DNA of 64,000 nt, from the NCBI GenBank assembly GCA_049975385.1, contig JBNGDO010000003.1, positions 5,460 through 69,459 of the forward strand, given 5' to 3'. The notes under the pieces were generated by a model. That model was not told the origin of the DNA. It did not search any database and was given only the letters and a program-made list of their open reading frames with translations. This DNA comes from Anaerolineae bacterium (GTDB lineage: Bacteria > Chloroflexota > Anaerolineae > B4-G1 > SLSP01). Both the position numbers and the translations under genes were made by a program. Below are positions 5,444 through 33,869 of the stretch, piece after piece (the stretch's first letter is position 1; every line of letters starts with the position of its first letter).

Positions 5444-6106
5444 TCATGGCAGTCCCGTGATACGGATACCCGACCCCGGCACTTTGTAGCGGATGTTGAT
5501 GCCGATGAGGATCGAGGTCAGCCCCTCCACGACTTTGGCGTTGACCAGCGGCCCGGCATCGATGCCGCGTGTGCCGATGTCTTCGGCGAGTTGGATGGCA
5601 ACCGCTTTAGCCGCCTTCTTGTCGCCGCAGACGAGGACATCGCAAGCGATGGGATGCTCCGGGTCTTCCAACGTGTGCGCGCCGACGTTCTGGAACGCGG
5701 CGACGACGTCCACGCCGGAGCCGAGGATGGCCTGGGCCTGCTCGGAGGCCGAGCCTTCGGGCGGAATGTAGACCCGGGCCACTTTGGGCGGCTTCAACGC
5801 GACATTGACGTTGATCAGCGTTTTGCCTTGCAGCGCACCGGTGAGGGTTTCGAGCAGGGCGTTTTGCGCGGCGTAGGGCACGGTCAGCACGGCGACGTCG
5901 CAGGTATACGCGGCGTCGACGTTCGCCATGCCACTGACCAGCGCGTCGCCGAGTTTGGCGTTGACCTCACCGGCAACGCGCTGTGCCTTTTCGGCCTTCC
6001 GCGAGCCGATGATGACGGTGTGCCCGGCTTTGGCCCAGCGCATGGCGAGGCCAGGCCCTTCGTTGCCCGTGCCACCGAGGATGGCAATGGTGTAGTATTG
6101 TGTCAC
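5444..6106 (-). CDS. fno: NADPH-dependent F420 reductase
   Basis: 220-aa ORF with the N-terminal dinucleotide fold IAILGGTGNEGPGLAMRWAKAGHTVIIGSR, typical of Fno/NpdG. Confidence 0.8.
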   Translation of the reverse strand: MTQYYTIAILGGTGNEGPGLAMRWAKAGHTVIIGSRKAEKAQRVAGEVNAKLGDALVSGMANVDAAYTCDVAVLTVPYAAQNALLETLTGALQGKTLINVNVALKPPKVARVYIPPEGSASEQAQAILGSGVDVVAAFQNVGAHTLEDPEHPIACDVLVCGDKKAAKAVAIQLAEDIGTRGIDAGPLVNAKVVEGLTSILIGINIRYKVPGSGIRITGLP

Positions 6107-6109
6107 GTT

Positions 6110-6200
6110 TAGTCCTCCATGATAGTCTGATAGTCGTTAGTCTGGCGTCAGCAAACCACGAATCTACACGAATTTTCACGAATGGCAATCAAGCTCACGG
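6110..6200. repeat. Intergenic oligomer repeats (GATAGTCT x2, then CACGAAT x3).
   Basis: Direct reading: gatagtctgatagtcg ... accacgaatctacacgaattttcacgaatggc. Confidence 0.7.
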
Positions 6201-6202
6201 CA

Positions 6203-9200
6203 TTAGTTACTGTTGCTCTCTCGCAGCACCAAGGGCAGGTAGATGAATCTGATTTCGCTGTTGAGCGGGATGTAGTCGCCTTTGTTCATTGCCATAGCGA
6301 CGTTGCCGGCTTCATCGACGGCCTGTAAGACGTAGCGCGCATTGGCAGGAATGTCTTCCGCGATGCCTGTCCAGCTCTGCCCGGACGGATCGTTGGGGTC
6401 ACGGTCCAGCGGAATGCTCCAGATGCGCTCCGCTGTGATGAAGGTGAAGAAGAATTGCTTGACGAAGCCTTCGGAGTCTTCGGCCGTTGCCTCCAGGGTG
6501 ACGGTAGGCGTGCCCGTGATCCGCAACGCCTGGGCGGTGAGGATGCGCGGTGGCGTGAAGTCTTCATTCCACGGGCGTGTGTAGAGGATGTCGATGAGGG
6601 CATTGGAAACCAACCGCATTTCGCCGCTCCCCGTGTTGTAGAGCGCGAAAGTGCCGGCAACGCTATTTGGCCCTTCCTCGAAGGCGTTGACGGTGAACAG
6701 TCGTGGTGATGACCAGCCCAAGCCTTCATTCAACAACGGTTCGGTCTGCGCCGTATCGGTCACCGGGCGCGTGACGACCGGGTCCATCCTTTCAACCGGC
6801 GTCAGGTTCGCCGACCTGAGCAGCACGCCACGCGGTGTCCAGGCGATCCCATCGGGCAGCGGTGGGAGTTGGATGGAGGCCGATGGCAGCAAGGGACGTC
6901 CGGTCGTCCCGTGCGTCCAGAGGTCTTCGGCGCCGATGCTGTAGTAGTTGCCGGCGTTGCCGCTCCGTTCGTGCAGCTCGGGTGTGACGTAGACGTATTG
7001 CGCCAGGAGTTTGAGACTCAAAGGATTGGTCGCCACCTGCGTCGTGGTGATGGGGGGGACGTAATCGAGTGGGCTGAGCGTGTTCGGTACCTCGACGGTG
7101 TACATCGGCAGCCCGTAGAGCGCGGCTTCCAGGATGGATTTGGCATCGTATGGCGTCAGTCCGCCGTGTGGTAACCCTTGTAGATAGCGTAGTTTGGCAT
7201 TGCGGAGCGCCATCCCGATGGGCACGCCGGTGTAACGGCCCAATTCCTGGGTCAGGTAAACCATCAGGCGTTCCGACCCGGCAATGCCGTCGTCGGTGCC
7301 GTAACCATAGCCGGTGTTGGCGATCCACGTACTACCTTTGGAGACAAGCGCCTGGGGAAAGTCCGGCGTGGTCTGTGCGTAGATGCCGGGGACGTTGTCG
7401 TCGGGGACGCTGTATCCCGCGTGGCAGCCCATCGACCAGGCAATGCTCCCGGCAATTGAGGGGTCTGCATCGATGATGTCAGTGTTGAAGAACAAATCCG
7501 CCGTTGTCGTGGCGCTGGCCGGCAGCGCGGCCCAGTGCTCGAAGTGGGCGTTGACGGCGACCAGGTCCGGGACGGTAGTGCGATTTGTCCATTCGGCGCG
7601 CAGATCATCGGCAGTCCATGTGTTGTTGATCAATGTGCTGGGGAAGGATGGGAAATGCATTGCGCCGAGCGCCCCGGCGATCACGGTGGAGGAGTCGGCG
7701 AGAAAGTCATAGCCGGTGACGAGGGCGCTATTGGAAGATAAGGTGCCGCCAGTTTCCAGGAACACATTGATCGCCAACTCGATGTTCTCCGGTGTCTCGA
7801 CCAGTCGTCCGGTAGCCTGCAAGGGACGCCAGAAGTATTGCCCGCGGTACCCCAATTCCATGCCGGACAATGTGCCGTAGGCGTCGTCGGTGAGATAGAA
7901 TCCCAGCCGGGTGGCCGCGCCCAGCGCTGATCCCGCGTAGCCGATCCTCCCAAATTCGCGCTCATTGGCGATGCGGGTGAAGTCCTTTTGCCGGTAGAAG
8001 GGAATTTGCTCATCGCTACCCGCGAGGACGACGTATTTGATCTCGGGTTCGTTCAACAAGGCCGGAGTCACGACCTCCTCACGGATGGCCTGTACCAATT
8101 GGTTGGCAACCTGGACGTTGCAATAGTTGGCGTTCCAATAAGCGTAGTGTTCATCCACGATCGGGTTGCTTTCGATCGGGTAGAGGATGCCGCGTACGTT
8201 GTCGGCGTCGGCGAGGAGGTGGAGCGCCTCGGTCACGAGTGTCGTTTGCGCCAGACCGTACGTTTGTGCCAGCCGGGTAGGATTGTAGAGGATCAGGGTG
8301 AGTGGGTGCGTTGTCGACGTGACACTGGTGCCGGTGTAAATCTCTGTGGACAGTAGCCCGACAGGATAGTTCGGCGTCCACGTGCAGCCAGGAAGCGACA
8401 ATGGCGATGTTTCTACCGACAAATTGTACGGTTGGTCGGTGTAGGCCGCGCCATCGGTGGGCAGCACGATGGCGTAATAGGTTCCCGGATAAAATGCGAT
8501 CACGCGCACTTGCTCGGCCTGTATCCCAGGATTGGAGGAGATGGAGGCCCAGCCGCCGATGGAGGCCCACCCACCAATGGAAGCCCACCCGCCGATGGAG
8601 GCCCATCCGCCAATCGAGGCCCACCCGCCGATGGACGCCCACCCGCCGATGGACGCCCACCCGCCAATCGACGCCCATCCACCGGTACTCTCGATATTGC
8701 CGTCTTCGTCGGTGATGACGGGATCATCCAACGCGCTCAACTCTTGCCCGGGCGGCAGCTCGGGCAGCAGGCTTGGGTCCGGCGCGACGATGAGTTCGTA
8801 GTCTGCCGGGAGGTTGTGCAGCGTCACGGTGAGCAGCGAGGGTTCAACAATCTCAAAGCTATACCAATCCTTGTCTCCACGCCAGCCAATGGCAGCCGTG
8901 ATGTTGGCGGGGATGCTGAGCGGCGTTGCCGTATCGTAGGTGTTGTTATATTCGTAGGGGTCCAGCGGCGGTTTGGTGGGCGGCAGGACGCGTTCGCCGC
9001 CACCAACCATAATGGCCCCCGCCGTTTCTTGGAGTAGAATTTTCCCGGTGCCGTCAAAAGCCAGGCCGAATTCTTCCATCGTTGCTTGATCCCAATAAAC
9101 ACTGGTGTGGGGCGCAAGCGTCTGCTCGCGGGCGGCTTTTTGTACGCCGTCATTGTTGAAAATCATCAACATAAAGGTGACGTCATATTCGCTGGGATTA

Positions 9201-19338: not shown

Positions 19339-21975
19339 CTATGGTGCCGCGGTCATACGCAGCGGCAACCGTGTGACGATGCATAGCCCAGGTCTTTCTG
19401 GATCGTCGGTATACGGACTCTTGGCATGGACTGTCCCACCGTGAGCGGCAACGACGGATCTAACCAATGCCAGCCCTAACCCTACACCGCCGTAACGGCG
19501 CTTAGCGCTGCCATCCACCTGGTAAAAACGCTCGAAGATGCGTTCCAATTTGTCTTGCGGAACCCCGATGCCGTTGTCGCATATCGACAGTATCGCTTCG
19601 TGCCCTTGTTGTTCCACGCGGATCCTGATATGGCCGCCCGGTGCGGTGAACTTGAGCGCGTTACTGATGAGGTTATCCAGGAGACGGTGGAACTGTAGTC
19701 GGATGCCGTGAATGAACAACGGGGTGTCGGGTACTTCCGAGTATAATGTCAGCGCTCTCAGGCGCGCTTCATTCTGGAACTCGGTACTCACAGCGCTGAC
19801 GAGATGGGTCAAATCAATCGATTCTACTGATGGCTTTTCCGTCTTGGTATTCTCCATTTGCCATTGCAAGGTGATGTTTTCCACAAGCTCACTTAGCATA
19901 GTGCTGCGCCTTGCAATGATGTCGATGGCCTCAGTCTGCAGTGCCTCAACCGGACCGAGTGATCCATCGCGCAGCATTTCGGCATATCCCATCACCAACG
20001 CGATCGGCGTGCGCAGTTCGTGCGAGATGTTCTGTAGCATCTCGTCTTTCATCCGATCCAGTTCTTCCTGACGCTTCAGTGCTTCCTCCAATACCTGAGC
20101 TTGATGTGCGGTCGCTTCGTAGAAACGGGCGTTCTGCAGGGCCAGGGCAATGGGCACGCGCAATGTTTTAAGCAATTGCTGATCTTCTGCTTTGTGGAGT
20201 GTGTTTTCTTTTCCGGCCAGCGAAAGAATGCCAATCAATTCGTCGCGTATTTTGAGTGGGATATCCAGCGTAAATCCATCGTCAACTTCGCGTTGGGAGG
20301 CCACCCAACGGACCAGGGTTTGTTCTGTGTTTTCAGCGCTAAGACCGTAAACCGTTCTGACGGGTTGCGTAATACCTTGTTCGGAAATAGCAGTGAGTGT
20401 GTGTTCGTCTTTGTCCCACAGATGAATGATCCCGCGTCGGATATTGAGCGCGCTTTTGATGTGAGCCAGCGCGCGTCTGGCCACCTCCTTCAATTCGAGC
20501 GTCTCCGCGAGTGTTTGCGAGAGGGTGTTCAGAATTGTTAAGTGTTGGCGCTCCGCTTCCAGGGATTCGATCAGGCGCAGATGCTCTATTGTTGCAGCGA
20601 CATAATCCGCAAAGAGTTGTAGGTGTTCCGCATCCGCGGCAGTGAATTGACCGGAGCGACTGCCATCGGCGTTGAGGAAACCGATTACCTCATCACGGAC
20701 GATGAGTGGTGTCCCTACGTAGGCACGAATGTTTTGGGTTCCTTCGACGGGGTTCCAGAGCGAAGAACTGCCGGTATCCACAATCAGAAGGGGACAGCGA
20801 TTCGTTGCCATGTATTTGTAGGTTGATAGCGCTTCGGGAAGTACGCTGGTCTTTGTGACGGCGCTTGGGTCGATGTTCAAGTGCTGGTAACCTGTTGCAG
20901 CGGCCATCTCGAGGTGGTTGTCTTTCACGAGAAAGATGTTAGCGGCGTCGCCTGGCACGATGCTCGACGTTTTCTCAACCGCCAGTTGAATTGCCTCGCG
21001 TGGTGTGCGCGCGCGCGACAACGCCAGCCCTGCTTCTGAAAGCGCTTCTAGCTGCCGGCGGGATAACTCACGCATTGTAACATCCATAACGCTGGCGATC
21101 AGCGCCGGGCGCCGGGCATGCATCGCATAAGAGCCGTAGGCCTCTACGTCAAAGATGCCACCATCTTTGCGGATGCCCTTAAAGTTGAAGCGAACTGCTT
21201 GCATTTTTCCTTGGAGGCAGGCATTGACATTTTCCTCAACCTCTGCCCGGTTTTCTGGTGCGGTCAGATCGAGTGGGCTGAGTCTTTCAATAATCTCGGC
21301 TGGGCTTTCATATCCAAACATGTGCGTTGCTGCCGGGTTGACATACCGTACGAGATCGGCTTGGATAAGCACGATGCCGATAAGGGCATGTTCTGAAAGG
21401 CGGCGGAAACGCTCTTCGGATGTGCGCAAGGCTTCCTCGGCCTCTGCGCGCCGCGACTCGGCTTCCATGCTCTCCAGTGCGAAACTGGCATCGGCGGCGA
21501 TTTCTTTCAGAAGCTGTATTTCAGAGGCGTCGAAGGCGTTGCGCTCGGTCGTGCTAACATTCAGGATCGCATCGATTGTTTCGTTAACGCGAATGGGCAC
21601 AGCGGCGGTTGTCCATGCCGCCGATGCCATTTGCGAGCGCGATTCGCGCCCGTGCGATTCCGGCTTTTGCTCGATGACAGTTCTGCCTTCATTAAGGGCC
21701 CGTTTGGCGACGGTCAGGTTGTAGGGGGCTTGTGCGATGTGCGTGTCAAGTTGATCGTAGTGTGCTGAAGGACCAGCTGCGCTGACAGCCGGATACAAGT
21801 TACCACTACGTAGTTCTCCAATCCAGACGGCTTTGTAACCACACTCCTGGGCCAGGACGTTGCACACTTCTTGCAGTAGTTGTCGGCGATCTCGGCGAAT
21901 GTACAGGATCGCCTGGTTGATACGTTTGGTTGCGCGCAGCGACTGGTTGAGGCGTTCGAGATGGTCTTTTCGCAT
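19339..21975 (-). CDS. Multisensor histidine kinase (GAF and PAS domains, HisKA, HATPase_c).
   Basis: 878-aa ORF. H-box ISHELRTPIALVMGY. C-terminal ATPase region GGVGLGLALVRSVVAAHGG. Confidence 0.85.
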   Translation of the reverse strand: MRKDHLERLNQSLRATKRINQAILYIRRDRRQLLQEVCNVLAQECGYKAVWIGELRSGNLYPAVSAAGPSAHYDQLDTHIAQAPYNLTVAKRALNEGRTVIEQKPESHGRESRSQMASAAWTTAAVPIRVNETIDAILNVSTTERNAFDASEIQLLKEIAADASFALESMEAESRRAEAEEALRTSEERFRRLSEHALIGIVLIQADLVRYVNPAATHMFGYESPAEIIERLSPLDLTAPENRAEVEENVNACLQGKMQAVRFNFKGIRKDGGIFDVEAYGSYAMHARRPALIASVMDVTMRELSRRQLEALSEAGLALSRARTPREAIQLAVEKTSSIVPGDAANIFLVKDNHLEMAAATGYQHLNIDPSAVTKTSVLPEALSTYKYMATNRCPLLIVDTGSSSLWNPVEGTQNIRAYVGTPLIVRDEVIGFLNADGSRSGQFTAADAEHLQLFADYVAATIEHLRLIESLEAERQHLTILNTLSQTLAETLELKEVARRALAHIKSALNIRRGIIHLWDKDEHTLTAISEQGITQPVRTVYGLSAENTEQTLVRWVASQREVDDGFTLDIPLKIRDELIGILSLAGKENTLHKAEDQQLLKTLRVPIALALQNARFYEATAHQAQVLEEALKRQEELDRMKDEMLQNISHELRTPIALVMGYAEMLRDGSLGPVEALQTEAIDIIARRSTMLSELVENITLQWQMENTKTEKPSVESIDLTHLVSAVSTEFQNEARLRALTLYSEVPDTPLFIHGIRLQFHRLLDNLISNALKFTAPGGHIRIRVEQQGHEAILSICDNGIGVPQDKLERIFERFYQVDGSAKRRYGGVGLGLALVRSVVAAHGGTVHAKSPYTDDPERPGLCIVTRLPLRMTAAP

Positions 21976-21986
21976 GCACGCGTCTC

Positions 21987-23405
21987 TTACCGGCCCTGAA
22001 CTAACTGTCGCGCGATGGCGTTGTGTCGCTCTACCGTAGTGGGGACATCGATGGTGAGCAAGCGCCCATCCTGGATCACGACGCGCCCGTTGATGACCGA
22101 CAGATCGGTGTATTGCGGGTGGCAGAAGACGGTTGCTGCCAGGGAATCGTGGACCGCGCCGCCGGCGTACCCGAGTGTGTCCAGACGCAGTCCGATGAAG
22201 TCGGCGGCCTTGCCGGGTGCGAGCTGCCCGATGTCGTCTCGTCCCAGAACGTCGGCCCCACCACGTGTCCCGATCCAGAGCGCTTCTTCTGCGCTGAGGC
22301 CGGCAGGATTACCCCCCCTTTTCTTCCCCTCCACCAGGGGGGAGAGGGAGGAGGGGCAAACGCGTTGCAACAGCATGGCCAGGCGCGCCTCTGCCAGCAG
22401 GTGCGAGCTATCGTTGCTCGCTGATCCATCGACACCCAGGCCGACAGGGACGCCTGCATCCAGGTAGGCGCGTACGGGGGCGATGCCGGAGCCCAGCCGC
22501 ATATTGCTCGCCGGGCAGTGCGCCACGCCGGTATGCGTGTGAGCCATTTCGTTAATCTCCTCCGCGTCGACGTGAACGCCATGAGCGAACCACACGTCGT
22601 CGCCAAGCCAATCCAGTGATTCGGCGTAGCCTACGGGCCGCTTGCCGGAGGTTGCCAGGCAGAATTCTTCTTCATCGAGTGTTTCTGCCAGGTGGGTGTG
22701 TAACTGCACACCGTAGGTACGCGCCAGACGCGCAGATTCGCGCATCAAGTCCTCGGTGACAGAGAACGGCGAGCAGGGCGCCACAGCGATCCGCAGCATC
22801 GCATAGGGTTGCGCGTCGTGGTAGGTTTCGATGACGCGTTGCGTGTCCTTGAGAATAAAGGCTTCATCTTCGACGACGCGATCCGGTGGCAGTCCGCCCT
22901 GGCTTTCGCCCAGGCTCATCGAGCCGCGGGTGGCGTGAAAGCGGATGCCGATTTCCTGCGCGGCGCGGATTTCGTCGTCCAGGCGCGCGTCGTTGGGGAA
23001 GATGTATAGGTGGTCAGACGTGGTGGTGCAGCCGGAAAGCATCAACTCCGCCAGCCCGGTCAGCGCGCTGGCGTAGATAGCTTCGCCGTTCAGTCCGGCC
23101 CAGATCGGGTACAGTGTGGTTAGCCATCCGAACAATCCCACATCCTGCGCGGCAGGGATGGCGCGCGTGAGCGTCTGGTAGAGGTGGTGGTGCGTGTTGA
23201 CCAAGCCTGGGAGAATGACCATGCCCGATGCGTCGATGACGCGATCGGCGGTGTGGTGCGCGAGTTCGGCGGTCGTCCCCACGGCTTCAATGACACCGCG
23301 TCCCTCGGCATTGTTATGCACAAGTAAACCACCGTTGGTGATGCGGCGGCGCTCATCATCCATCGTGATCAGCAGTGTGGCGTTTTTAAGCAAAAGTGTG
23401 CTCAT
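21987..23405 (-). CDS. Metal-dependent amidohydrolase of the ATZ/TRZ guanine or 8-oxoguanine deaminase-like family.
   Basis: 472-aa ORF. N-terminal HxH (LVNTHHHLYQT), HTHLAET, the later HGVH and a metal-ligand Asp region. Contains an unusual in-frame low-complexity insertion (see findings). Confidence 0.75.
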   Translation of the reverse strand: MSTLLLKNATLLITMDDERRRITNGGLLVHNNAEGRGVIEAVGTTAELAHHTADRVIDASGMVILPGLVNTHHHLYQTLTRAIPAAQDVGLFGWLTTLYPIWAGLNGEAIYASALTGLAELMLSGCTTTSDHLYIFPNDARLDDEIRAAQEIGIRFHATRGSMSLGESQGGLPPDRVVEDEAFILKDTQRVIETYHDAQPYAMLRIAVAPCSPFSVTEDLMRESARLARTYGVQLHTHLAETLDEEEFCLATSGKRPVGYAESLDWLGDDVWFAHGVHVDAEEINEMAHTHTGVAHCPASNMRLGSGIAPVRAYLDAGVPVGLGVDGSASNDSSHLLAEARLAMLLQRVCPSSLSPLVEGKKRGGNPAGLSAEEALWIGTRGGADVLGRDDIGQLAPGKAADFIGLRLDTLGYAGGAVHDSLAATVFCHPQYTDLSVINGRVVIQDGRLLTIDVPTTVERHNAIARQLVQGR

Positions 23406-23587: not shown

Positions 23588-26500
23588 ATGGTGGGATTGT
23601 CGAAATGGCTTAGAAGCGCTAGTAGCCTTGGAAGCATAGGCATCTTAGTGTTATTGTTGGGATTGTCGACCGGGCAAACGGTGGCGATTGATCCGCCGCC
23701 GGACGTGACTGATCAGGTGCAGACTTTGCTGGCGGAAGCCGACCTTCCCTGGGCTGTGCACGATGTCAGTTTTTCCGCTCAGACGCTCGCGGTCTGTCTC
23801 GACGTTCCATTGGAGACGCTATGCACGGACGACGGCTTGGGTGCCGAGACGGTGCAGGCTGCTGTGCAAAGGGCGCTCGTGCCCCTGGATTGGCGCGTGT
23901 TGCACGTGCAGGCGCGCGACCAGGAAACCGGCGCGTGCCGGGCACTCTCGAGTTTCCTGCACCGTGCTGTAACTCACGTGTCCGCGTCGACACGAATTCC
24001 CGCCGTCGACAGCGCTGCTACGCGTCCTGCGTTTTCGTTTTCGCGTAGCCTGGTAGGGAAGACGATCTACGTTAGTGCGGGCCACGGCTGGCAGTGGAGT
24101 TACGGGTCGGAAGCGTGGCGCCCGCAGCGCGGCGTCAACGAGGGGATCATCGAGGATCACAATAACGCTGAAGCCGTCGGGCAATACCTGATCCCCTACC
24201 TCGAGAGCGCCGGTGCGACGGTCATCCCGGTGCGCGAGCGAGATTGGAACACAGCACGTGTCATCGTGGACAATGACCAGGGCGCGCCTGGCTATGTCGA
24301 GACGGGGGTGTGGGTTACTTCGGTACTGACCGGTTACGCTGGCGGGACGTATCGTTTTGCCTCTACGGTAGCGGGCACGCCCACGGCGACGGCCTCCTGG
24401 CAGATCGCCGTCCCGCAGCAGGGGACTTACGCGCTTTACGCGTGGGTCTATCCCGGCTGGAACCGCGCCCCCGACGCGCGCTACACCGTATCCCATGCCG
24501 GTGGTACGAAGCACGTGTGGCTCGACCAGCGTATCCGGCAGCAGACGTGGCGTTATCTGGGCACGTTCCCCTTCTACGCGGGCACGGCGACGGTAACGCT
24601 GGACAACGCTTCGGCGGGTGGCAGCGGCGCCGTCGTCATCGCCGACGCGCTACGCCTGGGCGGTGGTAGTTTCGACAGCCTGGACGGTATCGTGACCGAC
24701 GCAACGTTCCCGCCGCAGCGTCCCTGGTGGGAGACGGCGACCTTCTACTACAGCCAGTGGATGGGGTTGAATTACGATGATTGGGAAGGTTTCAACGATG
24801 TAACCGCGCGCCCGATGTTCGCGCGTTGGAATCACGCGGGGAGTGGGGAGGATGCGCTCTACATCTCGTGGCATACCAACGGCTACACTGGCACGACGCG
24901 GGGTACAGAGTCCTATATCCACAACGGGGACACCTATTCGCGCACGCTTGGCAGCCCGGAATTGCAAACTGCCGTCCATACAGAACTGCTCCACGACATT
25001 CGTGTAGGGTGGGATGCTGCGTGGGTGGATCGCGGGCAGCGCCAGGCGGACCTGGGCGAGTTACGGATGCTGTGGGATGACGATCCCGCGACGCGGATGC
25101 CCGGCGTTCTTCTGGAGATCGCCTTCCACGATAACCCGGAGGACGCGCAGGCGCTCAAGGACCCGCGTTTCAACCAGTTGGCGGCGCGGGCCGTCTATCA
25201 AGGGATTGTGCGCTATTTCGAGCAGCGGGACGCCGTGGATTTGATTACATTGCCGGAGCCGCCGACGCATCTGCGCGTGCAAAACCTCGGCGGCGGTGCG
25301 GTGCGTGTGGCGTGGCAGCCCTCACCCACGGATGGCGCGGGGCTGCGCGGCGAGGCCGCGACTGGCTACCGCATCTACACCAGCCCCGACGGGTTCGCCT
25401 GGGGGGCGCCGGTTGCGGTTGCCGGAACGGCGCACACGCTGACCGGGCTGGCGGTGGGGCAAACGCTCTACGTCCGCGTGACAGCGACCAACGACGGTGG
25501 CGAATCCTTGCCCACAGAGGTCCTGGGCGCGCGTGTGGGCGACCATCCGCTCGTGTTGATCGTCAATGGCTTCGACCGGCTCCACGCCGACGAAATCGTC
25601 ATCCAGTACGATCCGGTGGAGGGGCCGAACGCGCGCCTGTGGGTCGACCAGATGAATAGCCAGGATTACGTGGTGCATCACGGCGAGGCCGTGCCTGCGA
25701 TTTATGCCTGGGATAGTTCCAGCAACGAGGCGGTGCGCGACGGTCTGGTCTCATTGCAGGACACGCTACTCGTCGATTGGCTGCTTGGCGAGGAGGCAAC
25801 ACTGGAAGATGGCACGTTGGATGCTGCTGAACGCGCCGCGCTGTTGGCGTTCCTCAACAGTGGGCGCGCGCTGCTCATCAGCGGATCGTATCTGGCCTGG
25901 GATCTCGACGGCATGGGGCGAGCACCTACCTTTATGCACAACGTATTGCGTGCCGGGTATGTCGTCAGTGACGCTGAAACATCTACTTTCCAATCGGTAG
26001 TTGACGGCGCGTTTGACGGTTTGGGAGCATTCACGTTCGATGCGCCAGACGTCTACCTCGTCGATGCGCCGGACGCGCTCACACCGCTGAATGGCGCGAC
26101 TGCGGCGTTAAGTTATGCCGGCGGGGTGGGGGGAACGGCGGCAATCCAGTATGTTGACGGTTGCCAGCGATTGCTTGTCCTCGGATTTCCACTCGAAGCT
26201 GTGCCGCAGCCGTCACGCGGCGCGTTGATGACGCACACGCTGGATTACCTCTCCGCCTGCCTGATGCCCGATACGACGATCGCGACACCTCAAGCAAGCG
26301 GCGCCTACAGTGTGACGCCCGCCTTTACCGGTTCAGCGTTTGCGTGGGGGTTGACGGGTGTGTCGGTGCAGGTACAGCGGGGTGACGCCGAAGACGCTTT
26401 CTGGACTGGCACAAGTTGGGGCGTGCCGACGTGGCTGACGGCGACGGGAACGTCGTCGTGGAGCTACCCGCTCCCCACGCTTACGGAAGAGGGCGACTAT

Positions 26501-26917
26501 ACTGTAACGGCGCGCGCCGAAAGTATACGCGAGGGTAGTGCGTGGCTCGACCCCACACCTGCTCAGGTAACCTTCACATACGATGTCACGCCGCCACTCA
26601 CGCCGACGCTGATCACGCCTACGGGTGGTGTCTTTCTGCGGATGCCCTTACTCGTCTTCCAGTGGACTGCGCCTGAGGACGACGGTTCGGCGTTAGCCTA
26701 CCGGCTGGAAATTGTCGCTCACGCAGGCGCTGCCGTGCGCGTCTACGATGTGCCCACAACGACGTACGCGGCGACGTTGCCTACCGGCGTTTACACCTGG
26801 CGCGTGCGGGCGATCGATGCAGCAGGCAATGCCGGCCCGTGGAGCGATGTTGCCCTCTTCGAGGTGGAGGTGGAGCAGATTTTTCTGCCATCGGTGATGC
26901 GTCAATACGAAAAGTAA
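23588..26917 (+). CDS. Large secreted protein (1109 aa) with an N-acetylmuramoyl-L-alanine amidase (Amidase_3)-like domain, a fibronectin type III domain and C-terminal beta-rich domains.
   Basis: Signal peptide MVGLSKWLRSASSLGSIGILVLLLGLSTGQTVA with RBS GGGAGG. Amidase_3-like motifs YVSAGHGW and ISWHTNGY...ESYIHNG. The FN3 stretch begins PTHLRVQNLGGGAVRVAWQPSP. Confidence 0.6.
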   Translation: MVGLSKWLRSASSLGSIGILVLLLGLSTGQTVAIDPPPDVTDQVQTLLAEADLPWAVHDVSFSAQTLAVCLDVPLETLCTDDGLGAETVQAAVQRALVPLDWRVLHVQARDQETGACRALSSFLHRAVTHVSASTRIPAVDSAATRPAFSFSRSLVGKTIYVSAGHGWQWSYGSEAWRPQRGVNEGIIEDHNNAEAVGQYLIPYLESAGATVIPVRERDWNTARVIVDNDQGAPGYVETGVWVTSVLTGYAGGTYRFASTVAGTPTATASWQIAVPQQGTYALYAWVYPGWNRAPDARYTVSHAGGTKHVWLDQRIRQQTWRYLGTFPFYAGTATVTLDNASAGGSGAVVIADALRLGGGSFDSLDGIVTDATFPPQRPWWETATFYYSQWMGLNYDDWEGFNDVTARPMFARWNHAGSGEDALYISWHTNGYTGTTRGTESYIHNGDTYSRTLGSPELQTAVHTELLHDIRVGWDAAWVDRGQRQADLGELRMLWDDDPATRMPGVLLEIAFHDNPEDAQALKDPRFNQLAARAVYQGIVRYFEQRDAVDLITLPEPPTHLRVQNLGGGAVRVAWQPSPTDGAGLRGEAATGYRIYTSPDGFAWGAPVAVAGTAHTLTGLAVGQTLYVRVTATNDGGESLPTEVLGARVGDHPLVLIVNGFDRLHADEIVIQYDPVEGPNARLWVDQMNSQDYVVHHGEAVPAIYAWDSSSNEAVRDGLVSLQDTLLVDWLLGEEATLEDGTLDAAERAALLAFLNSGRALLISGSYLAWDLDGMGRAPTFMHNVLRAGYVVSDAETSTFQSVVDGAFDGLGAFTFDAPDVYLVDAPDALTPLNGATAALSYAGGVGGTAAIQYVDGCQRLLVLGFPLEAVPQPSRGALMTHTLDYLSACLMPDTTIATPQASGAYSVTPAFTGSAFAWGLTGVSVQVQRGDAEDAFWTGTSWGVPTWLTATGTSSWSYPLPTLTEEGDYTVTARAESIREGSAWLDPTPAQVTFTYDVTPPLTPTLITPTGGVFLRMPLLVFQWTAPEDDGSALAYRLEIVAHAGAAVRVYDVPTTTYAATLPTGVYTWRVRAIDAAGNAGPWSDVALFEVEVEQIFLPSVMRQYEK

Positions 26918-26962
26918 CCCCTCTCACAAGCTTGCGGCACACTGGCAAGCCCGTGAGAGGGG
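26918..26962. terminator. Bidirectional hairpin terminator between convergent genes.
   Basis: Perfect 10-bp stem cccctctcac / gtgagagggg. The loop itself carries a cttgc/gcaag sub-hairpin. It sits directly after the stop at 26915..26917. Confidence 0.7.
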
Positions 26963-27013
26963 CGCGAGGAGGAACTATGCACACATAAGTGGGCATGAGT
27001 TAACAACCATTTT

Positions 27014-28825
27014 CTATAGGCCTGGCATAGCGATGGGTATGGTGAAGAAGAAGGTGCTGCCTTCGCCGGGTGCGCTCTCCAGCCAGATCCGACCACCGTG
27101 CATTTCCACCAGGTTCTTGGCGATGGTCATCCCTAATCCTGTTCCATTTTGTTCTTCAGCATTGGGATCGACAACGCGGAAAAATTTGGTGAAGAGGCGC
27201 AATTGATTTTCTGGGCTGATACCGATACCGGTATCGCTGATCGCACAGCGAATGAAGTCGGGCTCGTCGACAGAAAGCCAGGTTTTGACCGTGATCGTGC
27301 CTTCGTCTGGCGTGTACTGAATCGCGTTCCGCAGGAGAATGGTCAGAATTTGCTGCAGCCGGTCGTGATCGGCATAAGCCTGCGGTAGATCATCCCACGA
27401 CTCACAGGTATAGCGCAAGTGTTTTCTCTCCACGTCCTTTTGCAATCCTTTCATAACCTCTTCAAGTGTCGCGTTGAAATCGACCGCGCGCAGACTGAGC
27501 CGCAACCGTCCCGCTTCCATCTCAGCGACGTCCGAGAGATCATTGACGATAGCGATAATGCGCTGGATGCTTTGCGCGATGGTTTCGACAAATTCCTGCT
27601 GTTGTGGCTCGAGCGCTCCGGCCATGCCGGTCTTCAGCATATCGCTGTATCCAAGGATGTACGTCATCGGCGTGCGGAGCTCGTGCGCCATCGTGGAAAC
27701 GAACTCGGATTTGGTCATATTGGCCTGGCGCAAGGCCTCGTAGAGCCGTGCATTTTCGACGGCAGTGGCGATGTTGTCGGCGACGCGGGTCACCAATTCT
27801 AGTTTGCTTTTCTTGAACGAGCGTTCTTCGGTGACCAGGTAGAGCACACCGATCGGGCGTGTGTCGCGCAATAGCGGCAGGACCAGGTAGTGTTCCTCGA
27901 TGATCGGTTCGCGTGTGGAAATGCAGCGCATGGCTAACAGGCTATTTGGCTTGACGTCGCTGTCTTTGGTGAGCCAGCGAACACCCGCTTCTGCGATCAG
28001 CCCAATCACGCCGGCCTCTGCACCAGACGCGGCGACAGCCCATGCCGCACTGCGCTCCATCACCCGGTTGAAGTGCAGGCTGGCGTTGAGGTCGCGCATC
28101 ATCTCTTGTAGGATGGTCAGTTCGCGCATCTTCTCAGCGAGCGCCTGATCGATTTTCTGATGTTCTTGCGCATTGTAAATCGCCATCGCCGCGTTGTTGG
28201 CGAATGCGCTCAGGCTTGCCATATCTTCCTCGGTGAACACATCCGTGCGTGCTCGGTTGTCGAGGTAGATTGCACCAAGCGTTTCACCTTTGTAGATCAG
28301 GGGAACGCACAACGTCGCGCGCAGCCCATAGGCGATGATGCTTTCGCTCCCCTCGAACCGTGGGTCGATCTGCGCGTTTGTGCTGAGGATTGGACTTTTC
28401 TTTTTGATTGCTTGACGCACGATGCTGTGGCTGAATTGGATGTCGTCATCGGTGAAAAGCACGTACGAGGTGCTGTGCGTCATCTCCACCTGGGGGTCAC
28501 CGTTTGCATCGAGAAGGAGTAGCATACCACGTTCCGCGGTGGTGATCTGGATGAAGGCATCCAGCACGGCTTGCAGGGTTTGTCGCCACTCCAGCGAGGC
28601 ATTGATCGAGTGTGAAATATCGTAGAGCATGCTGAGGCGGGCGCTTTTTTCCAGCATCATATCCGTCTGAATTTGCCGGATCATCGTTTCCCAGGTTTGC
28701 ATCTGCGCGCCAAGCGCCTCAAGCGAGACCCCGTTCTGGAGCGTGTGGCGCTGCTGGCGGATCTCGGTTTGTAGCTGGGCTAACACCTCTTTGGCCTGGG
28801 CTGTGCTGATATTCACACTCTCCAT
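27014..28825 (-). CDS. Sensor histidine kinase with tandem GAF domains (no receiver domain).
   Basis: H-box MAHELRTPMTYILGYSDML. HATPase_c region GTGLGMTIAKNLVEMHGGRIWLESAPGEGSTFFF. The ATG at 28825..28823 is preferred because it overlaps the upstream stop (TAATG). The ORF track begins 22 codons earlier. Confidence 0.8.
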   Translation of the reverse strand: MESVNISTAQAKEVLAQLQTEIRQQRHTLQNGVSLEALGAQMQTWETMIRQIQTDMMLEKSARLSMLYDISHSINASLEWRQTLQAVLDAFIQITTAERGMLLLLDANGDPQVEMTHSTSYVLFTDDDIQFSHSIVRQAIKKKSPILSTNAQIDPRFEGSESIIAYGLRATLCVPLIYKGETLGAIYLDNRARTDVFTEEDMASLSAFANNAAMAIYNAQEHQKIDQALAEKMRELTILQEMMRDLNASLHFNRVMERSAAWAVAASGAEAGVIGLIAEAGVRWLTKDSDVKPNSLLAMRCISTREPIIEEHYLVLPLLRDTRPIGVLYLVTEERSFKKSKLELVTRVADNIATAVENARLYEALRQANMTKSEFVSTMAHELRTPMTYILGYSDMLKTGMAGALEPQQQEFVETIAQSIQRIIAIVNDLSDVAEMEAGRLRLSLRAVDFNATLEEVMKGLQKDVERKHLRYTCESWDDLPQAYADHDRLQQILTILLRNAIQYTPDEGTITVKTWLSVDEPDFIRCAISDTGIGISPENQLRLFTKFFRVVDPNAEEQNGTGLGMTIAKNLVEMHGGRIWLESAPGEGSTFFFTIPIAMPGL

Positions 28826-29757
28826 TAGGCACCTCCAGCGAGGGCGCTCGCCTCGGCAGCGTCTGCACTGGACCAATCCCAGAGCCAGCACGCCAACCCT
28901 CCCCAGGGTTGCAGCGGTTCGAACATTGCATGGGTATCGCGCCAGGCGCCACGGCGCTCTTTGTTGGATGAACGAAGATGCCGTTGCGTCGCCAACGTTG
29001 CCGGAATGTACTCGTAGCGCCCTAGGCTGAGCATGACGAGTCCCAGGGTTGCGGGTTCAAGGGTGAGGAGGTTCGCCAACTCAGCCGCAAGTGCATCTGC
29101 AGGGCATTCCCCTTGAGATAAAATCTCGATGTGCTTCGCTTTGCTGTTGAACTTCTCTGCGACCCGGATGAGTTTTCTGGCGATGTCTGGGGTAAATACT
29201 TCACGCAATACCTCATCTCCCCACAGGATTTGCTGTGGGGTGGGGAAGGCATGGCGTGTGGGATTGCTGGGCAGCGGATCGCCGAAGCGGTCGACAATCC
29301 ACGCAATGCGTTGTCCTCGCTGCATCTTCTCTTCCTGTGTGAGGATAATCGCTTTAATCACATCCTCGAAGAACGTCGTGCCGCGCAAGATGTGTGCGCC
29401 ATTGTGCAGCGTCGTTTCCAGGCCCGGCGTGCGACGCGCGATCTCCAGGAAGGGCTGCAAATTTTCGCCCAGCCTGAGCATGCGGCGGGTTTTCTGGCTG
29501 AGTTCCTCGGTGTCTTTTCCGCTCAGGCGCGCATCCGTTTGCAGGATGAGGCCGGCCAGTGTCTGAGAGAGGGTCAGAAAGACAGTGTGGCCCGATTGCA
29601 GGCGTTCGACACGGTTCAGGCGCTCTTTGGTGCGATTTACAGTGAATGGCGGCAGGAGCAGCCTAAATTGTTCCAGTTTCGATTTCTCGCAGTTGAGCGA
29701 GCGCCGGATGATTTGTGGTAGCGAAAAGCCATCAGGTACTGTCAGCGTCCAGTGCAT
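28825..29757 (-). CDS. AlkA-like protein (AlkA_N plus HhH-GPD fold DNA-3-methyladenine glycosylase II homolog), apparently missing the catalytic Asp.
   Basis: The N-terminus MHWTLTVPDGFSL... parallels the start of AlkA. The FPTPQQIL region and C-terminal PWGGLACWLWDW resemble AlkA FPTPQRL and PWRSYALLHIW. The Gly-rich HhH hairpin and the LPDDY catalytic Asp positions are replaced. This is a by-eye alignment. Confidence 0.5.
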   Translation of the reverse strand: MHWTLTVPDGFSLPQIIRRSLNCEKSKLEQFRLLLPPFTVNRTKERLNRVERLQSGHTVFLTLSQTLAGLILQTDARLSGKDTEELSQKTRRMLRLGENLQPFLEIARRTPGLETTLHNGAHILRGTTFFEDVIKAIILTQEEKMQRGQRIAWIVDRFGDPLPSNPTRHAFPTPQQILWGDEVLREVFTPDIARKLIRVAEKFNSKAKHIEILSQGECPADALAAELANLLTLEPATLGLVMLSLGRYEYIPATLATQRHLRSSNKERRGAWRDTHAMFEPLQPWGGLACWLWDWSSADAAEASALAGGA

Positions 29758-29991
29758 GTTCCCCCAGCTCAGTCACTTTGAAATTCTCAGGGCTATACGG
29801 TGTGCCAATGCTTCTCTCACCATGCGAATGTGCGTGATGAGGCCCTGCTTCGCTATTTAGCATACCATAGATGAACGTGATAGGGGATTTCAAGCAGGTT
29901 ACGGTTTAGTTAAAACATTTGGCCGGGGGGTAAACAAAACCGGGCGGGATTTATATCCTGCCCGGTGCGTATTCAGCGGCCAAATAAACAC

Positions 29992-32460
<2,469 letters not shown>

Positions 32461-32473
32461 CCGGATTGGCTTT

Positions 32474-32908
32474 TCAGAATGGTATATCGTCCCCGTAAAA
32501 GTCTTCATCGAAGTCGAAATCCTCATCGTCAAATTCATCACCGAAGAGGAACGTGTCCAGGTCGAGCTCGTCGGGATCGATGCCCTCGGCTTCCAGATCG
32601 CTCTGGATAATCGTGAGCATGGCCTCGCAGTAAGCGACCTGTTTCTGCAGCTTGGCCAGTTCCGTTTCTGTGGCGGATATGGCTTTGTCGATCCTGTTTC
32701 TCTGTTTCTGCCAATGCTTGCGTTCCTTTTCATCTTCTGTCGCGTCGTAGAGGCGTTGGGTGACATCAATTTCGTAGCGTTGATATTCGAGGTCGTACTC
32801 GAACTCCTTGATTTCGTATTGGATGTCCCGCAAGGTTAACATCCAGTGATGGAAAACACCGATTTTCACCGATACAGTCCTGCGTAATTCGCCGTTTTCT
32901 TCTTCCAT
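32474..32908 (-). CDS. Hypothetical coiled-coil protein with a highly acidic C-terminus (DEDFDFDEDFYGDDIPF).
   Basis: An ORF with a strong RBS (GAGGGTAAGGAA ATG) at 32908, lying 4 nt after the Rmd-like gene stop. The longer ORF-track start (32953) would overlap the upstream gene by 41 nt. Confidence 0.5.
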   Translation of the reverse strand: MEEENGELRRTVSVKIGVFHHWMLTLRDIQYEIKEFEYDLEYQRYEIDVTQRLYDATEDEKERKHWQKQRNRIDKAISATETELAKLQKQVAYCEAMLTIIQSDLEAEGIDPDELDLDTFLFGDEFDDEDFDFDEDFYGDDIPF

Positions 32909-32912
32909 TTCC

Positions 32913-33869
32913 TTACCCTCCCGTTGTGATTTGCCGCCATTCGTCCAGGACATCCTGGATCGTTTGCTCGAAGGGGATTTCCGGTTCCCAGCCGGTATCC
33001 AGTTTCAATTTCGCTGCACTGCCGTAGAAGACGGGGACATCGGCGGGGCGATAGCGCTCCGGGTCGATCTCCACGTGAATGGGAACGTTCGCCAGAGCGA
33101 TCAATTGATCGACGAGAGACCGGATCGTGCGCGGGGTTCCTGACGCGATGTTGTAGACCTCGCCGGACGTCCCGTGCGTCAGGGCTAGATGATAGGCCCG
33201 CACTACATCGCGCACGTCGGTGAAGTCGCGGGCGGGTTCGAGGTTGCCTACACGCATCACCGGGGCCTGTTTTCCGGCCTCGATCGCGGCAACCTGGCTC
33301 GCGAAGGCCGCCAGCACGAAGCGCGCCGACTGTCCCGGCCCAACGTGGTTGAAGGGGCGCATGCGGATGACGGGCAGTCCGAAGCTGATGAAGTACTGGT
33401 AGCCCATCACGTCCTGCGCGACCTTGCTGACGCTGTAGGGGTTCTCCGGGCGCAGAGGGTGATCTTCGGTCAGCGGGAGTTCGGCGGCGCTGGCGCGCCC
33501 GTATTCCTCGCCCGATCCGATGACCAACGTACGCGGCGTAAGCTGGAGCGACTTACAGCCTTCCAGCAGGTTTAGTTGCCCGCGGATATTGTTATCCAGT
33601 GTCCCCCACGGATCTTTGTAGGATGTCGGCACGTGAGATTGCGCTGCCAGGTGGATGACGTAATCCGGCGGGGACTGTGCCAGCAGCGCGCGGGTTGCGT
33701 CAGCGTCGCGTAAGTCCAAAAAGTGCAAAGCCTCGCGTTGTGGGTCATTCGGCGATGGTGGTGTATCGGGATAGCTCGTGCCGGTGATGTCCCAATCGGT
33801 CTCCGTGAGGAAATAGCGCCGTAGATGCGTGCCCACGAATCCGGTTGCTCCGGTGATCAAAATACGCAT
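32913..33869 (-). CDS. NAD-dependent epimerase/dehydratase, GDP-4-dehydro-6-deoxy-D-mannose reductase (Rmd)-like.
   Basis: 318-aa extended SDR with N-terminal ILITGATGFVGTHL and a YxxxK catalytic pair (PYSVSK). It is co-directional with gmd. Rmd versus Fcl cannot be settled by eye. Confidence 0.6.
   Translation of the reverse strand: MRILITGATGFVGTHLRRYFLTETDWDITGTSYPDTPPSPNDPQREALHFLDLRDADATRALLAQSPPDYVIHLAAQSHVPTSYKDPWGTLDNNIRGQLNLLEGCKSLQLTPRTLVIGSGEEYGRASAAELPLTEDHPLRPENPYSVSKVAQDVMGYQYFISFGLPVIRMRPFNHVGPGQSARFVLAAFASQVAAIEAGKQAPVMRVGNLEPARDFTDVRDVVRAYHLALTHGTSGEVYNIASGTPRTIRSLVDQLIALANVPIHVEIDPERYRPADVPVFYGSAAKLKLDTGWEPEIPFEQTIQDVLDEWRQITTGG

Follow-up and report, generated by a model that had tools for sequence, protein, structure and literature searches.

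In bacteria, RecA/LexA is the main known route for sensing DNA damage, and Ada that for alkylation; to our knowledge, no two-component kinase receives its input from a base-excision glycosylase. The enzymes of the HhH-GPD superfamily are defined by a catalytic Asp located after a Gly/Pro loop (D238 in AlkA, D138 in EndoIII, D268 in OGG1), and AlkA D238N is inactive. Among the closest described systems, H-NOX proteins are stand-alone sensors, which regulate the autophosphorylation of an adjacent kinase (PMC4436077, PMC6759604). In mammals, OGG1 together with free 8-oxoguanine acts as a signalling factor, through its product-bound form and not through repair (PMC4200771, PMC12732785). Mag2 is described as a glycosylase paralogue retained after losing base excision (PMC4433238).

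The window, i.e. the whole 64-kb stretch of DNA analysed, contains a histidine kinase gene preceded by a gene resembling AlkA, a pairing considered undescribed in a previous sequence-only reading. In agreement with that view, a search of the literature on HhH-GPD proteins or endonuclease III together with histidine kinases, and on pseudo-glycosylases, found no paper on such a pairing and returned incidental co-mentions only.

The gene pair and its transcription unit

Both genes are located on the minus strand. The features of the locus are listed below, in the direction of transcription.

29932..29966, minus strand: terminator-like hairpin (CCGGGC.GGAU...AUCC.GCCCGG) with UUUUGUUU, directly 3' of the upstream phosphoglucomutase (PGM) gene
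29864..29893, minus strand: promoter-like site 5' of the pair, TTGAAA and TATGGT spaced by 18 nt; consensus match only (2 found vs 1.4 expected)
28825..29757, minus strand: GLY, gene for a 310-aa putative AlkA-type HhH-GPD pseudo-glycosylase (ORF; related to AlkA, Mag2 and OGG by profile, hhalign and Foldseek)
29473..29757, minus strand: N-terminal beta/alpha domain of GLY, about residues 1-95, equivalent to that of AlkA/OGG (AF2, Foldseek)
29050..29070, minus strand: degenerate helix-hairpin-helix hairpin LLTLEPA, residues 230-236, FPGIGRW in AlkA (hhalign, MAFFT)
28996..29022, minus strand: Gly/Pro loop GRYEYIPAT, residues 246-254, with the Thr254 codon at 28996..28998 (alignments to AlkA)
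28823..28836, minus strand: coupling junction, made up of GGAGG, a 6-nt spacer and TAATG, where stop and start have one base in common
27014..28825, minus strand: gene for a 603-aa soluble orphan sensor histidine kinase (Pfam: two GAF, HisKA, HATPase_c)
28598..28804, minus strand: N-terminal helical hairpin of the kinase, residues 8-76 (AF2 helices H8-29 and H35-76)
28172..28591, minus strand: GAF domain 1, residues 79-218 (Pfam GAF_2, GAF and GAF_3, best 79-216; AF2)
27812..28072, minus strand: GAF domain 2, about residues 252-338 (second GAF stretch, DUF3369 at 299-364; AF2 elements 252-338)
27509..27712, minus strand: HisKA/DHp domain, residues 372-439, with H-box AHELRTPM (Pfam E = 7e-19)
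27032..27370, minus strand: HATPase_c catalytic domain, residues 486-598 (Pfam E = 3e-29)

The GLY product begins with MHWTLTVPD, and GGGGGAAC precedes its ATG. The junction reads, on the minus strand from 5' to 3', CGCTGGAGGTGCCTAATGGAGAGT: within TAATG (28827..28823), TAA (28827..28825) ends GLY and ATG (28825..28823) opens the kinase gene, while a Shine-Dalgarno (SD)-like GGAGG is found at 28836..28832, 6 nt 5' of the kinase ATG. The stop/start overlap previously noticed at 28823..28827 was therefore confirmed. Among the related junctions printed, 19 of 20 show an ORF overlap of 1-35 nt together with a SD-like GGAGG or AAGGAG located 6-9 nt before the kinase ATG, which argues against a chance arrangement; as the kinase start overlaps the GLY stop, the two proteins are probably translated together. 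A longer kinase ORF, starting with GTG at 28891 (625 aa), was discarded as a longest-ORF artefact, as homologues are 602-603 aa long and begin with ME(S/N) at the ATG.

The hairpin following the PGM gene was spotted by eye and then confirmed by folding (-29.8 kcal/mol, z = -3.4, equalled by 0/200 shuffles); the consensus terminator scan gave no match at this position. Its presence indicates that the pair forms a transcription unit of its own, and the locus is a two-gene operon, bounded by the terminator-like hairpin and the promoter-like site. Rfam comparison of positions 26700..30200 detected neither riboswitches nor other RNA families within the 234-nt leader. PADLOC returned no match for the 310-aa protein and a generic ATPase-domain match only for the kinase; a reading of the locus as a glycosylase-based anti-phage defence was dropped, as no defence-system match was obtained.

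The kinase (AF2 model, pLDDT 81.8) has the features of the HisKA class, namely a DHp domain with a phospho-accepting His and a HATPase_c domain, and its H381 is nearly invariant across 40 orthologues. About 120 orthologues are found, ranging in size between 597 and 657 aa. The N-terminal hairpin is present in kinases with AlkA-like partners and missing from those of 551-573 aa, whose partner is endonuclease III. Pfam comparison agrees with the initial description of a tandem-GAF kinase, and revealed neither a receiver domain nor a membrane segment. In addition, no receiver domain was found in the six frames of the 64-kb window by using a receiver HMM and five phmmer seeds; the same HMM detects receivers in other fetched loci, which served as positive controls, and only one of about 50 related GLY loci contains a receiver within 6 kb. 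The two GAF domains could themselves be the sensors of the kinase, for which an accessory input is then not obviously needed.

An AlkA-type fold with substituted catalytic and DNA-clamping residues

The GLY protein is 100% identical to a 'hypothetical protein' from an Anaerolineae MAG. Its comparison with Pfam and NCBIfam by HMM search revealed no family at E <= 1, PF00730 included, yet a profile built on 41 members of the GLY family reaches S. pombe Mag2 (E = 2e-7), an OGG (2e-5) and A. fulgidus AlkA (3e-4), and hhalign comparison with E. coli AlkA gives a probability of 93.9%. The AF2 model (pLDDT 87.9, pTM 0.87) features the HhH-GPD architecture, composed of a helical two-lobe fold and a N-terminal alpha/beta domain. 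Its top Foldseek match is E. coli AlkA, 1mpg (E = 4e-9, TM 0.68/0.74, 301 columns), followed by AfAlkA and OGG1; the alignment to 1mpg takes in the N-terminal domain, where the model places the elements E2-5, H13-21, E38-40, E46-52, E58-66, E69-73 and H80-94. GLY belongs to the AlkA/OGG/Mag group of HhH-GPD proteins. The resemblance to AlkA, originally detected in the blocks FPTPQ (residues 171-175) and PW...W (284-291), is real though weak, as profile, hhalign and Foldseek results agree.

The same sequence-only reading had considered the catalytic Asp and the hairpin glycines as substituted, the former within RYEYIPATL (residues 247-255), and alignment to E. coli AlkA bears this out. The position of Asp238 is occupied by Thr254 in three independent alignments (hhalign, MAFFT), and those of Gly214 and Gly216 by Thr232 and Glu234 (hhalign, MAFFT); neither the Gly-rich hairpin (L-P-G-[IV]-G) nor the catalytic Asp of the superfamily is found in GLY. 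Similarly, the AlkA wedge residue L125 corresponds to Q141, within a region which is variable and contains indels in the family, and the pocket residues W218, Y222 and Y239 correspond to A236, L240 and a Leu. On the basis of these substitutions, GLY is predicted to descend from an AlkA-type base-excision glycosylase and to be devoid of catalytic activity.

About 90 homologues are found in Anaerolineae, sharing new invariant motifs (SNPTRHAFP, PWGGLAYWLWDW, RMLRLGE) and a consensus LGRYDYIPxD at the Gly/Pro loop. Degeneracy is not family-wide: the catalytic Asp is kept in 40/88 proteins (45%), against 88/88 for P252 and 86/88 for W291, while Gly occurs in 21/88 at position 232 and in 9/88 at position 234. 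The residues W285 and W291 of the C-terminal aromatic cleft, and the acidic residues E131, D132, D156 and D/E249, are strictly conserved. Within the Asp-less subclade, dN/dS is 0.12-0.20; together with the new invariant motifs, this value argues that GLY is under purifying selection and not decaying. The Asp position is occupied in different lineages by T, A, V, Q, S, I, N or a gap. Loss of the Asp occurred about six times, independently, in lineages linked to the kinase, vs 0/13 of the kinase-less members (Fisher p = 0.0045, uncorrected for phylogeny). The need for catalysis may have been relaxed in kinase-linked lineages.

Conservation of the pair and older partners of the kinase

The kinase gene is located immediately downstream of GLY, on the same strand, in 38 out of 52 related genome loci, 25 of which feature a 1-35 nt overlap with an internal SD. 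The check on relatives thus supports the pair as a conserved unit, also outside its usual context. In many Anaerolineae the neighbourhood is syntenic (epimerase, epimerase, PGM, GLY, large amidase), and GLY usually follows phosphoglucomutase and GDP-mannose-dehydratase genes. The pair is intact away from this sugar-nucleotide neighbourhood at loci L017, L018, L021, L027, L030, L036, L042, L049 and L055. A functional membership of GLY with the PGM and GDP-mannose genes is unlikely, given the terminator-like hairpin in between and the relocation of the pair without them. About a quarter of the GLY loci (13/52) lack a kinase gene next to GLY, and some kinase orthologues are not flanked by a glycosylase gene, an observation which speaks against an accessory role of GLY.

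Pairwise distances of GLY and of the kinase immediately downstream are correlated (r = 0.815; partial r = 0.80 given the adjacent PGM gene), more than those involving PGM (0.44 and 0.28); joint transfer, and not co-adaptation, could account for this correlation.

This analysis also revealed distant kinase orthologues, at 37-40% identity, located behind canonical AlkA-like, PF00730 or endonuclease III genes. A canonical AlkA-like partner is found at L062 (1992-2906) and L064 (734-1621), a 257-aa PF00730 gene at P0352, and a canonical endonuclease III at L057, L060, L061, L073, L078, L081, L082, L084 and L103, as well as at L076, with one gene in between. Gaps in these older pairs range between 20 and 186 nt. 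The endonuclease III partners have the Lys, the Asp and the four Cys intact, and the AlkA-like ones both hairpin and Asp. Near non-orthologous GAF kinases, HhH-GPD ORFs were found in none of about 41 cases within the DNA fetched, which covered at least 900 nt upstream of each. In the kinase tree (neighbour-joining, midpoint-rooted, as for all trees) partner types follow clades, and outgroups have no partner. In other Chloroflexota, the kinase family was thus paired with glycosylases predicted to be active. These older partners look like ordinary repair enzymes, so that the original connection could have been nothing more than co-expression, and this too speaks against an accessory role.

Possible roles and comparison with known systems

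The reading that we favour, with somewhat less than even confidence, is that GLY may serve the orphan kinase as an accessory subunit, for input or regulation. A role as an accessory subunit sensing DNA damage or a small molecule, as suggested in the sequence-only reading, would agree with all of the context evidence. The arrangement resembles that of accessory-sensor pairs, with a small soluble protein encoded directly upstream of a kinase in a conserved operon, and the working analogy is with stand-alone sensors encoded beside orphan kinases, such as H-NOX. The ancestor of GLY would have been a real repair enzyme, by then genetically coupled to the kinase family; GLY would have kept fold and cleft, while its catalytic Asp, its wedge motif and the HhH glycines which form the DNA-backbone clamp would have been lost. 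A ligand bound in the remnant cleft, possibly a base, whether free or excised, a molecule resembling a lesion or a weakly bound damaged nucleic acid, would then probably alter kinase autophosphorylation, and the phosphoryl group would be passed to an unlinked response regulator.

Alternatively, GLY could be a non-catalytic binder of lesions or abasic sites, which shields or flags them and shares the operon through a common stress only, exerting no direct control on the kinase. Mag2, the best match among solved structures, is reported to be non-catalytic and to bind DNA weakly, and a role in the protection of AP sites has been proposed for it (PMC4433238, citing PMC3545110, PMC4008723); the GLY of the window is basic (pI 9.05), and the older kinase partners are genuine enzymes of the repair type. 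We consider this unlikely, as the hairpin glycines which clamp the DNA backbone are lost, the wedge region is variable, and the family pI, ranging between 5.3 and 11.7 (median 6.45), indicates no conservation of a basic surface for DNA binding; moreover, the overlaps, the joint relocation and the correlated rates would be left unexplained. The persistence of fold, cleft tryptophans and acidic residues, the canonical Asp in 45% of the family and the frequent position after sugar-nucleotide genes would also suit a protein which is still an enzyme, relying on another catalytic residue or acting on another N-glycosidic substrate (nucleotide, nucleoside, RNA or nucleotide-sugar), with a kinase either co-regulated or responsive to the product. 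The variety of replacements in different lineages makes the position of the defining Asp look dispensable, however, the AlkA pocket residues are replaced by A, L and L, and the terminator-like hairpin stands between the sugar genes and the pair, so that we regard this possibility as quite improbable.

Two-component operons often include target genes, and GLY might be an output, i.e. a regulated target kept from its repair-enzyme past, in an operon autoregulated by the kinase through a distal regulator. Ancestral partners resembling working repair enzymes, separated from the kinase by gaps compatible with plain co-transcription, fit with this model. A target devoid of enzymatic residues should decay or vanish, while GLY is found to be constrained, and its coupling to the kinase tightened as it degenerated; for these reasons little probability is assigned to it. 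Finally, the gene order might be inherited by coincidence, with no functional link, as the whole neighbourhood is syntenic in many genomes and thirteen loci carry GLY alone. This is highly improbable: the pair persists in unrelated contexts, its genes overlap with an internal SD, and members of two different HhH-GPD subfamilies precede orthologous kinases at the same place, against none of about 41 controls.

An accessory input role of GLY may be part of a broader picture, which we put forward as a doubtful but possible one: an old, undescribed module of Chloroflexota, in which a HhH-GPD repair protein would be the input partner of a soluble GAF kinase, the partner changing from a basal endonuclease III to an AlkA-like enzyme and then to a pseudo-enzyme. 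The pair in the window would be the end-point, with a dedicated sensor subunit devoid of catalysis, and the module would link DNA base damage, or excised bases, directly to a two-component phosphorelay. The recurrence of this kinase family beside glycosylase-type genes suggests an undescribed way of signal entry into a two-component kinase. If the pseudo-glycosylase controls the kinase, it would represent a new class of kinase input domain and a clean natural case of transition from enzyme to signalling pseudoenzyme, with intermediates alive in sister lineages (canonical enzyme with kinase, hairpin-less protein with Asp, fully dead protein). An annotation would also become available for about 90 Anaerolineae proteins now named 'hypothetical' and for about 120 orphan kinases, and the system, composed of two soluble proteins, is small and directly testable.

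Compared with known proteins, GLY shares with E. coli and A. fulgidus AlkA, 3-methyladenine DNA glycosylase II with a N-terminal TBP-like domain, the three-domain fold and the blocks FE(D/Q), FPTPQ, the G-R-x-D loop and the C-terminal PW...W, at an identity of 15-21% only, and is paired with a histidine kinase instead of ada/alkB-type genes. Its nearest relatives, at 28-32% identity, form a canonical 'SHGW/TTNxxW' AlkA-like HhH-GPD subfamily, present in Chloroflexota and other bacteria, with the same length and domain order and the common motifs RVERLxSG, WMLRLGEDLxPF, FGDPLPxxPxRHAFPTP and GLAYWxWDW. Unlike GLY, they match the HhH-GPD family of Pfam, and their SHGW and TTNxxW motifs, G[VIM]G hairpin and catalytic Asp are all retained; the AlkA-like partners at L062 and L064 are kinase-linked members of this subfamily, while members without kinase (P0112, P0091, P0116) lie in unrelated gene contexts. 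Mag2, the best sequence-profile match of GLY among solved structures, differs from it in having no N-terminal domain and in keeping, in the alignment, the P-x-D-D Asp and the G-V-K hairpin; it acts on DNA and has no known kinase partner. OGG1 signalling is eukaryotic, involves small GTPases and an enzyme which stays active, and is unrelated to two-component systems. With respect to H-NOX pairs, GLY has a DNA-glycosylase fold instead of a haem domain, and its kinase carries two GAF domains; as in those pairs, the gene of a small soluble protein directly precedes that of a cytoplasmic kinase without receiver or adjacent regulator.

The gene pair and its products

The TAATG stop/start overlap proposed in the sequence-only reading at 28823..28827 was confirmed on the minus strand, since the stop codon of the 310-aa gene (GLY) and the start codon of the histidine kinase gene share one base. 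The relevant features are:

29932..29966: hairpin and U-tract after the upstream phosphoglucomutase gene (PGM); -29.8 kcal/mol, z = -3.4 by folding
29864..29893: promoter-like site between this hairpin and the pair
28825..29757, minus strand: GLY, 310 aa, stop TAA at 28827..28825
28836..28832, minus strand: GGAGG, 6 nt ahead of the kinase ATG
28825..28823, minus strand: kinase start ATG

An upstream kinase start, GTG 28891, suggested by the longest-ORF call, was rejected because orthologues are 602-603 aa long and start from the ATG. Given the hairpin and U-tract after PGM, followed by the promoter-like site, the pair looks like a bicistronic unit of its own. Rfam families gave no match in the region of the pair.

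The 310-aa protein matches no Pfam or NCBIfam model; an Anaerolineae MAG encodes a 'hypothetical protein' with 100% identity to it. About 90 homologues were found, every one from Anaerolineae/Thermoflexia-type MAGs or metagenomes, some labelled '3-methyladenine/8-oxoguanine DNA glycosylase' by JGI. In a single-sequence search of solved structures the sole match was A. fulgidus AlkA (AfAlkA; E = 0.02), while a 41-sequence GLY profile matched S. pombe Mag2 (E = 2e-7), an OGG (2e-5), AfAlkA (3e-4) and E. coli AlkA (0.07). Alignment to E. coli AlkA by hhalign, using a sequence checked against 1diz, gave a probability of 93.9%. The AF2 model (pLDDT 87.9, pTM 0.87) has E. coli AlkA 1mpg as top Foldseek match (E = 4e-9, TM 0.68/0.74), followed by AfAlkA and OGG1; the 1mpg match covers 301 columns and therefore includes the N-terminal domain. 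Profile, hhalign and Foldseek thus bear out the AlkA-like homology that had been read from the sequence.

In the kinase, Pfam detects two GAF stretches, HisKA (372-439) and HATPase_c (486-598), and neither a receiver domain nor a membrane segment is present. Its AF2 model (pLDDT 81.8) opens with a helical hairpin at the N-terminus (8-76); GAF1 and GAF2 follow, separated by one long helix, and a second long helix leads from GAF2 into DHp, after which comes the catalytic domain. A receiver HMM, which detects receivers in other fetched loci, gave no match across all frames of the 64-kb window, so that the kinase indeed lacks both a receiver and a nearby regulator, as first noted. The window encodes a second receiver-less kinase (19339..21975, minus strand; 878 aa, GAF-PAS-GAF-HisKA-HATPase_c). 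Its gene is 12 nt away from an upstream amidohydrolase gene (21987..23405), which makes it a further orphan kinase preceded directly by a gene of an enzyme family.

Loss of enzyme residues and conservation of the pair

Substitution of the catalytic Asp and of the HhH glycines, the other structural claim of the sequence-only reading, was recovered identically in three independent alignments.

Residues of E. coli AlkA and their counterparts in the window protein
D238 (catalytic Asp): T254
G214 / G216 (HhH hairpin): T232 / E234
L125 (wedge): Q141, in an indel-rich, variable segment
W218 / Y222 / Y239 (pocket): A236 / L240 / L255
W272 (cleft): W291, invariant within the GLY family

The closest canonical relatives (25-32% identity) match Pfam HhH-GPD and keep SHGW, TTNxxW and G[VI]G, all lost in the GLY family, as well as the catalytic-position Asp, lost in many of its members. 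Within the family this Asp is found in 40 of 88 proteins and Gly at the two hairpin positions in 21/88 and 9/88, and P252, W285 and W291 are kept in 85-88 of 88. Invariant motifs peculiar to the family are SNPTRHAFP, RMLRLGE and PWGGLAYWLWDW. Decay of the 310-aa protein is contradicted by its dN/dS against relatives without the Asp (0.12-0.20), which is similar to that of the kinase (0.08-0.14).

By taking one genome per species, 55 GLY loci were collected, 52 of them informative. The expectation that the pair is conserved held, as a same-strand kinase (46-83% identity) follows GLY in 38/52; 25 of these junctions overlap by 1-35 nt, with an SD-like site within the first gene. Pairwise distances of GLY track those of the kinase (r = 0.815; 0.80 as a partial correlation given PGM); the correlations with PGM are 0.44 and 0.28. 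The usual order is epimerase, epimerase, PGM, GLY, kinase and a convergent large amidase. A clade of 13 loci (among them L022, L024, L026, L028, L029, L034, L035, L037, L038, L050 and L052) has the same PGM/amidase neighbourhood without the kinase, GLY lying at about 6001-6900 per locus; here the HhH hairpin is already degenerate and the Asp is kept in 13/13. Within the kinase-linked clade, about six lineages have lost the Asp separately (Fisher p = 0.0045 for Asp loss against linkage, uncorrected for phylogeny).

Several features of these neighbourhoods were recorded separately. Converging on the window kinase is a 1109-aa protein (23588..26917, plus strand) with Golvesin_C, Amidase_3 (N-acetylmuramoyl-L-alanine amidase) and fn3 domains, having a homologue at the same position in ~30 related loci. 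A very acidic 159-aa ORF (32474..32953, minus strand) stands between two GDP-mannose-4,6-dehydratase-family genes and shares 41 nt with the upstream one; homologues occur in ~9 related loci, and its sole Pfam match, Tho2, is weak and below cutoff. GLY is followed by two tandem kinase paralogues in L049:1132-5035, and is divergent from a 789-aa kinase homologue in L044:2346-5260, the locus with the sole receiver-domain gene seen near any GLY gene. DNA-base-metabolism neighbours are single cases: an MGMT-type DNA_binding_1 gene (PF01035; L058:8223-8792) and a dCMP-deaminase gene (L058:8934-9350), 2.4-3 kb downstream of the GLY-kinase pair in that locus, and a convergent UDG-family gene directly after the kinase (L062:4882-5493).

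HhH-GPD partners of distant kinase orthologues

Distant orthologues were sought with the sensor half of the kinase, followed by context look-up.

Genes directly upstream of distant kinase orthologues
P0347, P0339: canonical AlkA-like genes, 295-304 aa, SHGW/TTNxxW type
P0352: 257-aa PF00730 gene
P0354, P0356, P0357: canonical endonuclease III
P0340, P0346: aldolase gene

Scanning metagenomes with the aligned distant sensor regions added 80 loci. Within them, the only kinases that have an HhH-GPD ORF alongside are P0354-type orthologues, and every such ORF is an endonuclease III. Including the three looked-up loci, endonuclease III is present in 10/12 P0354-type loci with enough upstream sequence, and no HhH-GPD ORF lies beside any of ~41 non-orthologous GAF kinases. 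The canonical endonuclease III genes directly upstream of the kinase are L057:3332-3997, L060:2256-2921, L061:2236-2922, L073:2218-2991, L078:113-838, L081:419-1156, L082:1880-2638, L084:2050-2859 and L103:947-1645, and their LSQNT motif, GVGPKTAA Lys, PVDTH Asp and four Fe-S Cys are intact. The HhH-GPD/kinase link thus extends beyond the degenerate family. The endonuclease-III-linked kinases, from other Chloroflexota, are 551-573 aa long, with intergenic gaps of 3-186 nt, and lack the N-terminal helical extension (~55-65 aa) of kinases with AlkA-type partners.

A neighbour-joining tree of the kinases places the GLY-linked clade as sister to the one that holds canonical-AlkA-linked kinases; clades linked to endonuclease III branch below these, and outgroup kinases lack a partner. 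Canonical HhH-GPD relatives at a greater distance (P0112, P0091, P0116) have no kinase linkage. This kinase family was associated with HhH-GPD genes before the pseudo-enzyme arose, and the association spans two subfamilies.

Proposed role of the pseudo-glycosylase and known systems

The locus is a conserved, translationally coupled operon of an orphan GAF kinase and an AlkA-type protein that, judging by its residues, is catalytically dead. The latter may well serve the kinase as an accessory subunit that provides input or regulates it, a tentative reading, against which stands the fact that the kinase has GAF sensors of its own. A base or lesion-like molecule held in the remnant cleft could be the ligand of the pseudo-glycosylase.

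A non-catalytic DNA binder resembling Mag2 (PMC4433238), the protein matched by the family profile, is unlikely, and a residual or altered enzyme somewhat more so; the Asp persists in part of the family and is replaced in the window protein. There is a still smaller chance that GLY is a cargo gene regulated by the kinase. Plain inherited synteny is highly improbable: the pair lies outside its usual neighbourhood in nine loci.

An accessory role in the kinase system is open to direct test, and the series from enzyme to pseudo-enzyme is still present in living lineages. Full-text literature searches returned no account of an HhH-GPD protein or endonuclease III paired with a histidine kinase, in line with the initial view of the pairing as undescribed, and PADLOC has no model matching it. 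Both parts have known precedents, namely orphan kinases with a stand-alone partner and pseudo-glycosylases. H-NOX proteins regulate adjacent kinases (PMC4436077) and, by the analogy proposed here, the pseudo-glycosylase would likewise be a separate regulator of the adjoining kinase.
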